A DNA stretch of 64,000 nucleotides from Raillietiella orientalis (lineage: Eukaryota): positions 1 through 64,000 of the forward strand of contig JAYWIR010000062.1 in the NCBI GenBank assembly GCA_036172245.1, read 5' to 3'. Both the position numbers and the translations under genes were made by a program. The notes below the pieces were generated by a model. It was given only the letters and a program-made list of their open reading frames with translations. It searched no databases and was not told the origin of the DNA. Shown piece by piece: positions 1,551-64,000 of the stretch; within the stretch, counting starts at the first letter, position 1; each line of letters begins with the position of its first letter.

Positions 1551-3623
1551 CAAGGCGGTCGACTGCGTGAATCAGGATCTCCTCCTGGAGCTCCTGGAAC
1601 GCCTCAGTCTCCCGGTGTACCTCGTGGCCTATTTGCGCGCTTGCTGACGCCACGCGCTCATTTCCATCTCTTTTAGCGGCTGCCATGTGTACGGCTAGAC
1701 GGTGCGGCGGGGTATCAGGCAGGGCGACAGCTTAAGCCCGTTGCTCTTTAGCATCTTCTTTGAGTTCATGCTGAGGGCGTGCAGCTGATGCTGACCAACC
1801 TTCCGAGCTTTATTCCAGGAACGCCGTTTGTGTCGGCGTATGCTGACGACCTGTCTCTCCTTTTACCCATGACTATCCCAGCGTCCAGTCTCGAGTTTTT
1901 CTTCGAGTTGATTCGCCGGGGAGCGGGCATGGGTGTAAACAGGAGCAAGAGCGTGGTCGTTCCTATTGGTGCGGCGTGGGAGGGGAAGTCCGACTGGATC
2001 CGCCTGGGGATCCCCACCGCCTCGTCCACCCAATATCTGGGCGTTCCGCTAGGGAAAATCAGCCCAGTAAAAGAGTGATCGGATTGCCTTCGGAAGGCTA
2101 CGAATGCCCTGAGCCCGTTCCACCAAGGCAGGTTCGTCCTGCCAGAGCGGGCCACGATATGGAACACCTTCGTTGCCCCCCTCCTGCGCCTCCTGCTTTT
2201 TGTTTGCCCGCCCCCCTACTCGGCCAAGCTCCAGGCGCACAGCCTGTTGAGGAACGCTCTGTGGGGACCTGCGAGGTCCAGGATACGCCTTGAAGACTTG
2301 GCGGCTCCGCGTCGGGATGCTGGCTTAAGCATCCTGACGCAGGAGAGAATCGAGCTGCTGGTGCAGCTTCGAATGTTTTCCCGGTTCGCCAACCTTTGGT
2401 CCACTCCGTGGTGCGCTCCCTCGCGCCTGCTTCTGCGGCGCTGCACAGGCAGCGATGGACTTCTGTCGCTGCGGCCGCACACGGAGCGCGCCACGAGAAG
2501 CTTCGGTTTCCCCTTGAAACCGCTGTACCGGCTCCTGGAAGCCCAGGAATGGATCTCCTGCAGCCCAACGAACTTTCAAGCCTGGCGGCAGGAACCGTTG
2601 CATGGCTGGGCAAAGCACCAGGATGTTTCCCTCCTGGAACTTCGTTGCGCTCACCTGTCCCCGTATCGCACGGTGGACGAGGTGTGCAACAGTCAGGAGA
2701 AGTGGACTCCCCTGGCCGTCACGCCCCTCGCCGACGCGCTGTGAGCTCTCAGGGCAAGAGATGACAGCTGCGAATTGGCGAGATGGGAGGTCTCCTGCAC
2801 CATCGCAGGAACAACACGACCCATTGGCGGCTGGTGGACTTGCGAACTGGTGGACGCCTCCACGCCTCGCCAAGTTCCGAAGGAACTCCTTCGGTGGAGT
2901 GAACACTTAAGTGTGGCCCCCGATGAACTTGTGGTCCCTCCCTCCTGTTTGAACACTTCTGTGTTTTCCCTTTTGTGGAAGCAGGACGTCATCATGCTGA
3001 TGCATTGTGGTTTTCACTCCAACCAGCGGACTAACCGTGTTTCCGGGTGAGTTTTCTTCCCAATCTGCAAGCGGTGCGGGGTAGTCGAAACGCTTTGCAC
3101 CTGCTCCTAGACTGCAGTGCCCTCCTAGGACTTTGGCGGAGTCTGGCCTCAGCTCTTCTGCACCAGGGAGACACCGCGAGAGACTTGATGCGCCACTTCT
3201 TTGCACCAGGCGGCCTGTCTTTGGGTGCTGTCGTTGCAACCGTGTGTTGCACCCGCGCCATCGACAAGGCCCACCGAGAGTTGGAGAAGCTGGCCATCCT
3301 TCGTCAGCCCACCTGATTAGCCAGCACAAGCGGCCAAGTGGACTCATCTACGAGATTGCGTGAGGAGAGAGATAGCCGGCATCCATCGCCGGTTCTGAAA
3401 GGAAGGAACGGCCGAACCAAAGACCCCTGTTTTTTTCCATCCATATCTTAATTTTTATTTTGGTACAAGTGTATTTGTGGTCCCCTTGCTTGCGTTCTGA
3501 ACTTTGCTTATACCGATCTGCTTTCCGGCGATCCCACCTCCTTCGTCTCTTGTTTTTGTTTTGTCAAGGAACTGTGTTCCCGGATAGTTTACTAATAAAC
3601 GCCTTGACGCACCCTGATGATAA
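1551..3623 (+). mobile_element. Tx1-like ORF2 3' half (RT, zinc finger) and 3' UTR, degenerate
   Basis: RRGIRQGDSLSP, SAYADDL, QYLGVPL and CKRCG..HLLLDC motifs. AATAAA at 3594 followed by a decayed terminal hairpin. Confidence 0.85.
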
Positions 3624-62116: not shown

Positions 62117-62251
62117 ACCTGAGTCTGCTGGCAGACCCGACTGTCGTCATCAAACCGCACGCCCTTCCCGGCAGCGTTGATGCTTGCTTTCACGAAAACC
62201 GTGACCCCGCAGGTGTTGCGTGCGCCGTATTGCCAATACAACCAACCCCCG
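62117..62251 (-). mobile_element. Tx1-like EN fragment
   Basis: GGWLYWQYGARNTCGVTVFVKASINAAGKGVRFDDDSRV. Confidence 0.8.
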
Positions 62252-62265
62252 TGTATTTACAGTTG

Positions 62266-63508
62266 ATGGTAGTGTATCAGAAAAAGTAATATCGCAGCAG
62301 CACGTGAAGATGAACTAGCCGCGGCATTTAAGGAGTACAGTAATAGCTTGCCAGATATCGATGGGGATATTGAAATTGGACTCACTACAGGAACTCATGT
62401 GGATCTACCCGAAGACAAACGGCTACCTATATATCAACCAACCAATACCTGCGTAACCGTCAAAAACTTGGCAGCAGTGGCCAACGGTTGGCTTTACAGT
62501 TCCAAACAGTATAAAGACGCACATTTAACCCTTATGATCAACGGGATATACGCTCTGCTAACATATGACATGATCAGATTCCGATCTGTGAACGGTGTGC
62601 TATTGCCCGATGGTGATTGGCGGCCGACACCTCAAAGATATGACTTAACCCCTGCCCATAGAGCGTCTAGCCAATCGGCTCTCCACCAACAATTGGCAAC
62701 TAACTGTATGGTGTCAGTCATAGCTACCAAGGTTTCCTGGTGGTTAACTAATCACCACACTGGTGTGCGGAAGGACAATACTCGAGGAGCTGGATATCCG
62801 CTCAAAGTTTGGCGCTCATTATTCGCACGTTCACCCTTGTCTGAACAGAAGGGTATGGCTGTAGCGCATACACTTGCACATTTCTGTAGCACGCTTCAAG
62901 TGCTCGAGTTGGCTGGCTTTAATCACACGATAGAGTCGGTGCCTCTTACTGTACATGGACCCACCTTCAAACCAGTCATAATATCTCAAGATGCACTGCT
63001 AAGATTCTTATCCCCGCCTGCTGGAACCCACAGGCATGCAGTCGCCTATCAAGCATTCAAACGCTTAGTTGACTGGGCCCAGGCGGCTCATTGCCCTGAC
63101 ATCGAAAACATGTTGTTTCTGGGAGAGGCGTATATAGGCATTATGCTCAATGAAAAATTCTACCACATAGGTGCAAGATACTTGACCGGCCAAGCTCGCA
63201 CAAATTTCAATGATTCAGACGCCAATTCAACTTTAGGGCGACTTGGATCTTTTATGTTAAACGTGCACCCGAAATCGACCTTCTGTCTTTCACGCCATAT
63301 GACTCAGCAAGCCATCGAGTCAAAAGAAGACTTTTGACCCGAGTGGGAAGCCTTTTGCTCAAAAGTTCCGAAAGAACTTTCGCTTAGACCTATAGAAATG
63401 ATAATCCCAACTCTAGGAACTGATCGTGTGGCGGACATTAGATCGAAGCTATACGCGGCTATCCGGACTTTTGAGCATAGGCTTCCCCGGGCTGACAGCC
63501 CAGGCTGA
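62266..63508 (+). pseudogene. Endogenous viral element: probable qinvirus-like (Qinviridae) nucleoprotein
   Basis: Intronless, lower GC than the flanks. Motifs ATKVSWWLTNHHTG, PAGT, YHIGARYLTG, LGRLGSF..HPKST..SRH recalled from qinvirus second-segment proteins. Open 62273-63337 and continues 56 codons after a TGA. Probable frameshift after ATG 62266. Confidence 0.6.
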
Positions 63509-63660
63509 GACAGCACGAGGTGTTTCCCGCAGCTGAGCCTATGCATTAGAAGAACGACCAACTCTCCCCAGTTGTGTTGCCTTCCCATATTTGTGACTTC
63601 ATACATAATGACTAATTGAATAAAGTTTGCTTGAGTTTTTTTAAAAAAGAACAAAACAAA

Positions 63661-64000
63661 ACAGGCCGCGATATGGAACACCTTTGTTGCCCCCCTCTTG
63701 CGCCCTCTGCTTTTTGTTTTCCCGCCCCCCTACTCGGCCAAGCTCCAGGCGCACAGCCTGTTGAGGAACGCTCTGTGTGACCTGCGAGGTCCAGGATCCG
63801 CCTGAAAGACTTGGCGGATCCGCGTCGGGATGCTAGCTTAGGCATCCCGACGCTGGACAGAATCGAGCTGCAGGTGCAGCTTCGGATGTTGGCCCTGTGC
63901 GCCGACCTATGGTCCACTCCGTGGTGCGCTCCCGCGCGCCTGCTCCTGCGGCGCTGCACCGGCAGCGATGGACTTCTGTCGCTGCGGCCGCATACGGAGC
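63661..64000 (+). mobile_element. Tx1-like ORF2 post-RT fragment
   Basis: AAIWNTFVAPLLRPLLFV. Closely similar to 2145-2488. Confidence 0.9.

Follow-up and report, generated by a model that had tools for sequence, protein, structure and literature searches.

In the window, by which we mean the whole 64,000-nucleotide stretch of Raillietiella orientalis DNA that was analysed, positions 62252 to 63642 hold a decayed insert derived from a Qinviridae S (nucleoprotein, N) segment. The insert lies among LINEs on a 633-kb contig, and its GC content is 46.4%, compared with 59 to 60% in the flanking LINEs. All of its features are on the plus strand. It begins with a 5'-truncated remnant of the viral 5' leader (62252 to 62290), in which positions 62269 to 62290 match the 22 nt that follow a predicted splice acceptor in the leaders of sister copies. 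The N coding region, assigned by homology and fold, occupies 62291 to 63337; the ATG at which sister copies start is absent from ~62291, and the open frame (62273 to 63337, 354 codons) ends in a premature TGA (63335 to 63337). A further 56 codons are open after this TGA, closed by a stop that is out of register. The C-terminal remainder of N (63338 to 63549) is frameshifted near 63494 to 63502, and the codons common to the focal and sister copies end at a TAG (63547 to 63549). Downstream follow an AATAAA (63619 to 63624), a T7 run read from the sequence (63636 to 63642) and a degenerate poly(A) tail (63643 to 63663), 17 of whose 21 nucleotides are A and which begins at the point where, in sister copies, a GT-rich tract leads on to the viral terminus. 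The first-pass annotation of this DNA had described a lower-GC block of ~1.4 kb with ~355 and 56 codons around a TGA, followed by AATAAA, a T7 run and an A-rich tail, and all of these elements were recovered. Measured against a complete S segment, the focal copy lacks sequence at its 5' and 3' ends. The lost start, premature stop and frameshift, together with the position among LINEs on a long contig, indicate chromosomal integration. As a gene the copy is dead, and if it has a role today it would be as a putative source of small RNA; taken alone, it is an ordinary viral fossil.

Protein searches placed the ORF with the qinvirid nucleoproteins. A word-index search returned three matches, namely a Formica fusca gene model (37% identity), Hubei qinvirus-like virus 1 (33%, 93% coverage) and one unnamed sequence, and a full HMMER scan recovered 284 relatives at E <= 0.001. 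The third-best HMMER relative was the small-segment protein of Wuhan insect virus 15 (38% identity, E 5.9e-46), and Hubei qinvirus-like virus 1 was 33 to 34% identical to the focal ORF (E 1.3e-32). Popillia japonica gene models sat in another cluster of relatives (10 of the 150 listed were looked up); these and the Formica fusca model are further qinvirus-derived endogenous viral elements (EVEs) of arthropods. The first-pass annotation had likened WWxTNHHTG, PAGT and YHIGAxYLTG to the segment-2 (putative N) proteins of Qinviridae, and when relatives were aligned in 140 rows, the columns of these motifs hardly varied. A Pfam scan of the ORF matched 0 families, a PDB sequence search gave two chance-level matches only (E 1.5), and the protein and structure searches yielded no cellular or transposable-element protein that would account for the ORF.

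A structure model of the focal ORF, built on the 140-row alignment, reached a pLDDT of 91.8. Among the predicted viral structures of BFVD, the six best matches were all named S proteins of qinvirids (E 2.9e-19 to 7.8e-14), followed by an unnamed protein at rank 7 and one from a yue-like virus at rank 8; fold similarity to qinvirid N was TM about 0.7 to 0.77. Together with the 33 to 38% identity to named qinvirids, these top matches upheld the assignment to Qinviridae. Among solved structures (PDB), N proteins of pneumoviruses and paramyxoviruses headed the list and aligned over most of the length, at weak scores (best E 0.055; Z 5.4, rmsd 5.1, 206 aligned). The relation to mononegavirus-like N folds, a comparison that the annotation had suggested, may hold, though no strong score supports it. 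These leading rows agree with the ICTV profile, according to which the Qinviridae S segment codes for a mononegaviral-like N (PMC10721934), and with a structure-prediction study that, in its available part, groups qinvirid with mononegaviral N (PMC10888975). The insert is almost certainly a real qinvirid N EVE. With the S segments of Wuhan insect virus 15 and Hubei qinvirus-like virus 1 (genus Yingvirus) it shares 33 to 38% identity over 93% of the query and the same predicted fold, and its complete sister copies also share segment length and a similar terminal motif; in contrast to them, the focal lineage is integrated, decayed and a separate lineage.

A search of the genome (210 Mb, 491 contigs) for the N protein gave 75 matches, corresponding to about 51 blocks on 33 contigs, several of which duplicate one another almost exactly. 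An HSP70 search of the genome gave 87 to 90% to HSC70 of arthropods, molluscs and other animals, which places the host no more narrowly than among the invertebrate animals. At the DNA level, the nearest relatives of the focal copy were 65 to 80% identical to it. The first-pass annotation had only the focal insert when it read the locus as a record of past infection, and dozens of related N inserts now strengthen that reading. An assembly artefact, or contaminating RNA of a current virus, is highly improbable in view of the lost start, premature stop and frameshift of the focal copy, the coincidence of its edge with a LINE target site (see below) and the dozens of differently decayed relatives spread over 33 contigs. 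Three sister copies with both ends preserved spanned 1701, 1713 and about 1784 nt, each with one ORF, and so fell within the 1.6 to 1.9 kb of a qinvirid S segment. A shared non-coding 3' terminal motif was exact at five places, all of them EVE 3' ends, and bore a weak resemblance to the 5' terminus of Wuhan insect virus 15, taken as its complement (p 0.01, 0.056 and 0.35 in three copies). Terminal complementarity of 7 to 13 nt was present in 4/7 exogenous segments, and a 5'/3' panhandle in the three complete copies was not above shuffles (p 0.35 to 0.46). The first 17 nt of Wuhan insect virus 15 segments 1 and 2 are identical. Three inserts, L002 (G000:C20), L017 (G000:C89) and L020 (G000:C63), retain long open frames of 390, 361 and 367 codons, respectively, from first Met to stop. 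A second qinvirid N insert, older and more decayed, lies 5.7 kb past the window (G000:C62:69681-70549; L016, L022), and it too has an acceptor-like signal ahead of its start.

Fragments of the L segment were rarer than those of N: a less sensitive search with a real qinvirid L query found 4 decayed matches (29 to 30% identity) in two duplicated loci, none of them linked to the focal virus. These decayed L (RdRP) fragments lie at G000:C93:120898-129263 and in its near-duplicate G000:C26:552107-560469 (L163-L166, L076, L077). There, one L fragment has an N fragment on its own strand 255 nt away, an arrangement that may reflect side-by-side segments or a serial template jump.

Among 11 close copies, the proportion of synonymous differences (pS) was at least 0.79 in 55/55 pairs, and pN relative to the focal copy was 0.08 to 0.27; dN/dS was not computable among these 11, as pS was saturated. 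Saturated pS combined with low pN indicates that purifying selection acted on the source sequences while they diverged, ahead of insertion, as expected of separate viruses, and the saturation among even the closest copies points to repeated captures. In a quick tree, all 22 EVE rows lay to the same side of a branch with SH-aLRT 98, a grouping that may be inflated since the focal query served as the reference for trimming these rows. That grouping, the three copies with long open frames and the canonical splice and poly(A) signals described below would also suit an N-gene family, host-domesticated or mobile, whose intron and poly(A) site arose in the host genome before LINEs made further copies of it. 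We regard such a family as improbable: the two-ended copies span 1.70 to 1.78 kb, inside the ICTV range for S segments, their shared non-coding terminal motif resembles qinvirus termini (at the p values given above), the synonymous saturation in all pairs far exceeds the ~10% divergence of neighbouring LINE copies, and L-segment fragments of the same virus family have been endogenised too. Endogenous qinvirus sequences are known from an RdRP EVE in an ant, as reported in the accessible part of one study (PMC6540820), and from basal hexapods, near whose EVEs the accessible part of another finds no retroposons (PMC6955108). The present inserts resemble these arthropod EVEs in being germline inserts of the same virus family, but differ in comprising about 51 blocks, mostly of N, several near full segment, at LINE-specific target sites.

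The upstream flank of the focal insert is a fragment of a Tx1-like LINE endonuclease (APE) on the minus strand (62118 to 62251), which carries the APE codons GGWLYWQYG...RFDDD, shares 81 to 85% identity with the 39 further LINE copies listed, and represents the insertion target. The downstream flank is a 5'-truncated Tx1-like LINE in the same sense as the virus, the inferred carrier. This sense ORF2 fragment starts at 63664, directly after the A-tail, and continues through position 64000 to G000:C62:65144 (plus strand, 1.48 kb); it is 90% identical to positions 2150 to 3623 of the window, with a blastx match in frame +3 that begins at the third base past the tail. The first-pass annotation had placed the block between two Tx1 fragments. 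Both flanks are indeed LINE, but they differ, one being reverse-strand endonuclease and the other sense ORF2. The name Tx1, taken from the first-pass annotation, is provisional for these LINEs, which have an RVT_1 match, APE motifs, a CCHC-type ORF1 and a site preference. The A-rich tail (63643 to 63663) had no match in the Tx1-like LINE copies compared, and its reading as an inverted LINE 3' UTR was rejected for this lack of a match. Target specificity of Tx-group LINEs is described in the available part of a published account (PMC3747384).

In the family of the downstream LINE, 3' ends lack poly(A) and abut CA[AG]C in 23/30 loci, about 10 of which are at antisense GG[RW]L codons of other LINEs' endonuclease; three have exact 13-nt target site duplications (TSDs), as judged by eye. 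The 5' edge of the focal insert lies 13 nt into this preferred GG[RW]L target. Seven other close copies start at the target of a second LINE family, the GDFN codons, and three such GDFN-site units have duplications at both ends that match at 10 to 11 of 13 positions (by eye). Two close copies, L011 and L014, start at neither hot spot. The window as a whole (e.g., 34453, 52571, 62118-62251 and 2150-3623) contains at least two LINE families that target the endonuclease codons of other LINEs (GDFN sense; GG[RW]L antisense) and have 3' ends without poly(A). Elsewhere, at G000:C22:3211659-3217306 (L048), three N-segment copies of different viruses alternate with LINE pieces in a head-to-tail array, each restarting at the GDFN target. 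At L049 8523-8555 (G000:C57), a LINE of the focal carrier's family ends inside an N insert at CAGC, indicating that inserts were later targeted or truncated there.

At the 3' side, sense LINE coding sequence lay within 60 nt in 8 of 13 viral 3' ends (the focal one included) and 634 nt on in 1, with no match in 4; no antisense LINE was found next to these 13 ends among the first matches listed. Three of the 9 sense cases lie in one tandem array, and 69% of RT-like bases in the window are on the plus strand of a dense LINE cluster, so a sense neighbour is not rare. The only TSD candidate at the focal locus was the 13 nt at the target-side end of the antisense GG[RW]L site (62239 to 62251, plus strand), whose partner at C62:65145, past the LINE 3' end, matches at 9/13 positions. 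It was rejected as a TSD for this imperfect match and because the flanks are about 370 to 380 bp apart in an uninterrupted target copy, so that a deletion or recombination must be added to any account of the locus. Nor does a TSD directly bound the viral copy, as LINE body rather than target follows the tail; the earlier statement that no TSD was to be found here holds.

How the viral sequence reached this site was judged from its junctions. The A-tail, which starts 18 nt after AATAAA, and the LINE target at the 5' edge support an origin from viral mRNA and copying by LINE machinery, as the first-pass annotation had proposed on the model of EBLNs. The comparison with EBLNs held only in part, since there is no TSD and the tail joins a LINE. 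EBLNs and other LINE-made mRNA retrocopies of negative-strand viruses are bounded by tail and TSD, as far as the accessible part of the source shows (PMC2987831). The focal insert shares with them an N gene, a 3' poly(A) tail that is not LINE-derived and LINE machinery; it differs in that its tail joins a truncated LINE body, with no clean TSD. A plain EBLN-type retrocopy, in which viral mRNA was primed at its own poly(A) and the downstream LINE came later or was brought near by deletion, would accommodate the tail position and the 5' edge at a LINE hot spot, and the 370- to 380-bp gap in the target shows that deletion or recombination did happen. We nevertheless consider it unlikely. Neither target continuation nor TSD follows the tail, the junction at the tail lacks the CA[AG]C that the downstream LINE's family targets, and sister copies without an A-tail, which end at the viral terminus, also directly precede sense LINE pieces.

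A tail followed by a same-sense 5'-truncated LINE instead of a TSD is better explained by a chimeric retrocopy. In U6/L1-type chimeric retrocopies and in R2 template jumping, a non-LINE RNA is copied 5' of a same-sense 5'-truncated LINE. The focal insert has the same layout of passenger and LINE, and passenger 3' ends joined in this way were found in the focal copy and in 7 more of the 13 3' ends; the difference is that the passenger here is a viral segment and that the LINE inserts specifically at codons of other LINEs. A single TSD around passenger plus LINE would match at 9/13 positions in the focal copy and at 10 to 11 of 13 in three sister units at a shared hot spot, where shared hot-spot motifs would look alike even without a single event. 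The insert is thus probably a virus-LINE chimeric retrocopy of a polyadenylated RNA from the S segment of a host-specific Qinviridae lineage. In the proposed sequence of events, the LINE enzyme would nick its own target site, begin reverse transcription on the LINE RNA 3' end, which has no poly(A), and copy 1.48 kb. The reverse transcriptase would then jump to the polyadenylated 3' end of the viral N mRNA and copy 1.4 kb of viral RNA, which would be joined to the target; about 370 to 380 bp of target would be lost through deletion, or through later recombination between neighbouring insertions. A literature search found no reports of viral-RNA/LINE template-switch chimeras, and subscription papers may bear on this novelty.

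Leaders of the sister copies contain an intron-like block. Eight close copies have a leader, and in these a GT-AG block about 163 nt long was first seen by eye and then measured. An AG|GTA donor lies 161 to 165 nt before the acceptor in 6/8, the other two donors being picked by eye at 143 and 186 nt; MAFFT placed the donors in one column for 5/8 only. A pyrimidine tract with at least 10/13 pyrimidines precedes 7/8 acceptors compared with 2/77 other AGs, and a branch-like motif is present at -22 to -24 in 6/8, within a block whose interior is only 43% identical. A fixed acceptor rule fired at -19 to -23 in 7/8 close copies and near the start codon in 13/29 copies overall (the focal copy not among them), compared with 158/1450 shuffles, 51/309 far-upstream windows, 18/261 coding windows, 6/29 reverse strands and 1/7 exogenous leaders. 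Adding the branch motif left 8/29 copies against 25/1450 shuffles. Conserved GT-AG, branch and pyrimidine signals of this kind are consistent with an intron-bearing negative-strand virus, and they set the sister copies apart from exogenous qinvirid leaders. The first-pass annotation had called the focal insert intronless, which is correct for the ORF but not for the sister leaders; ~17 nt of leader upstream of the corresponding junction are left in the focal copy. This stretch did not identify the focal leader as either form. As a spliced form it was tested twice against the exon end (p 0.27, then 0.07 to 0.18 with the three closest relatives), and as an unspliced form against the intron end (p 0.08, then 0.14 to 0.33); a positive control reached no better than p 0.03 to 0.09, and the upstream 17 to 18 nt fitted neither. 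Host introns in one HSP70 gene were about 45 to 55 nt by eye, shorter than the viral block. Among related viruses, the yue-like viruses of cyst nematodes, bisegmented, negative-strand and treated beside Qinviridae, have GU/AG introns with junction reads; in the accessible part of that report, these introns interrupt coding regions, and none is reported for the two qin-like viruses (PMC12770441). The block described here is likewise of GT/AG type in a bisegmented negative-strand virus, but is located in the 5' leader and predicted from sequence alone. A literature search that lacked most subscription papers found no reports of qinvirus splicing.

Signals for polyadenylation were similarly shared. 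All 7/7 complete sister 3' ends carry AATAAA (4) or a one-mismatch form (3) 94 to 112 nt ahead of the point where the terminal motif ends; in 6/7 a GT-richer tract comes next, with no A-run. Shuffling gave 5e-5 for at least 4 exact hexamers, for a window that was chosen after inspection and copies that share descent. In contrast, 5/7 exogenous segments show A7 at a comparable position, a run that we read, by analogy with Mononegavirales, as a probable stutter signal. In the exogenous qinvirus segments L063, L150, L160, L161 and L162, the distance from the A7 run to the 3' end is 61 to 101 nt, and the termini are complementary in most of them. The start of the focal tail coincides with that of the GT-rich tract in the sisters, as host cleavage would predict, although the tail may instead be a templated A-run of its own source virus.

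ICTV lists replication and translation of Qinviridae as unknown (PMC10721934), and a 2024 paper, in its available part, counts only trypanosomatids as confirmed hosts (PMC11108086). Against this background, the dozens of germline copies amount to long-term qinvirus infection of an invertebrate animal. The splice and poly(A) signals of the sister copies could reflect host nuclear RNA processing, a reading we put forward as a serious possibility rather than a probable one. The S segment would be transcribed in the nucleus, its ~163-nt leader intron would be removed by the host spliceosome, and AAUAAA-directed cleavage and polyadenylation would take the place of polymerase stuttering. The genome would then hold both fossil forms, unspliced full-length antigenome copies and a polyadenylated mRNA copy, written into LINE-specific targets by end-to-end template jumping. 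Alternatively, the signals could be there for the viral polymerase or for trans-splicing instead of cis-splicing. If the reading is true, the preserved untranslated ends predict a spliced, host-polyadenylated N mRNA and hence nuclear transcription. The junctions are, in addition, an unusually legible record of the capture of viral RNA by a LINE without a poly(A) end. Qinvirus EVEs and LINE-made N retrocopies with tail and TSD were known already; the part worth following is the family-wide occurrence of splice and poly(A) signals.

Several N sequences adjoin material of other kinds. In the near-duplicate inserts L007 and L008 (G000:C33, C72), the 3' part runs into a different RT sequence that, by eye, is not Tx1-like. 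The flank of another N insert (L023, about 1100-1400; G000:C231) presumably resembles 28S rRNA. A metagenome contig (L156, 1-373) carries a broken qinvirid N gene beside reverse-transcriptase-like sequence, with what we take to be a Penelope-like motif in the latter, and is probably an EVE of another organism.
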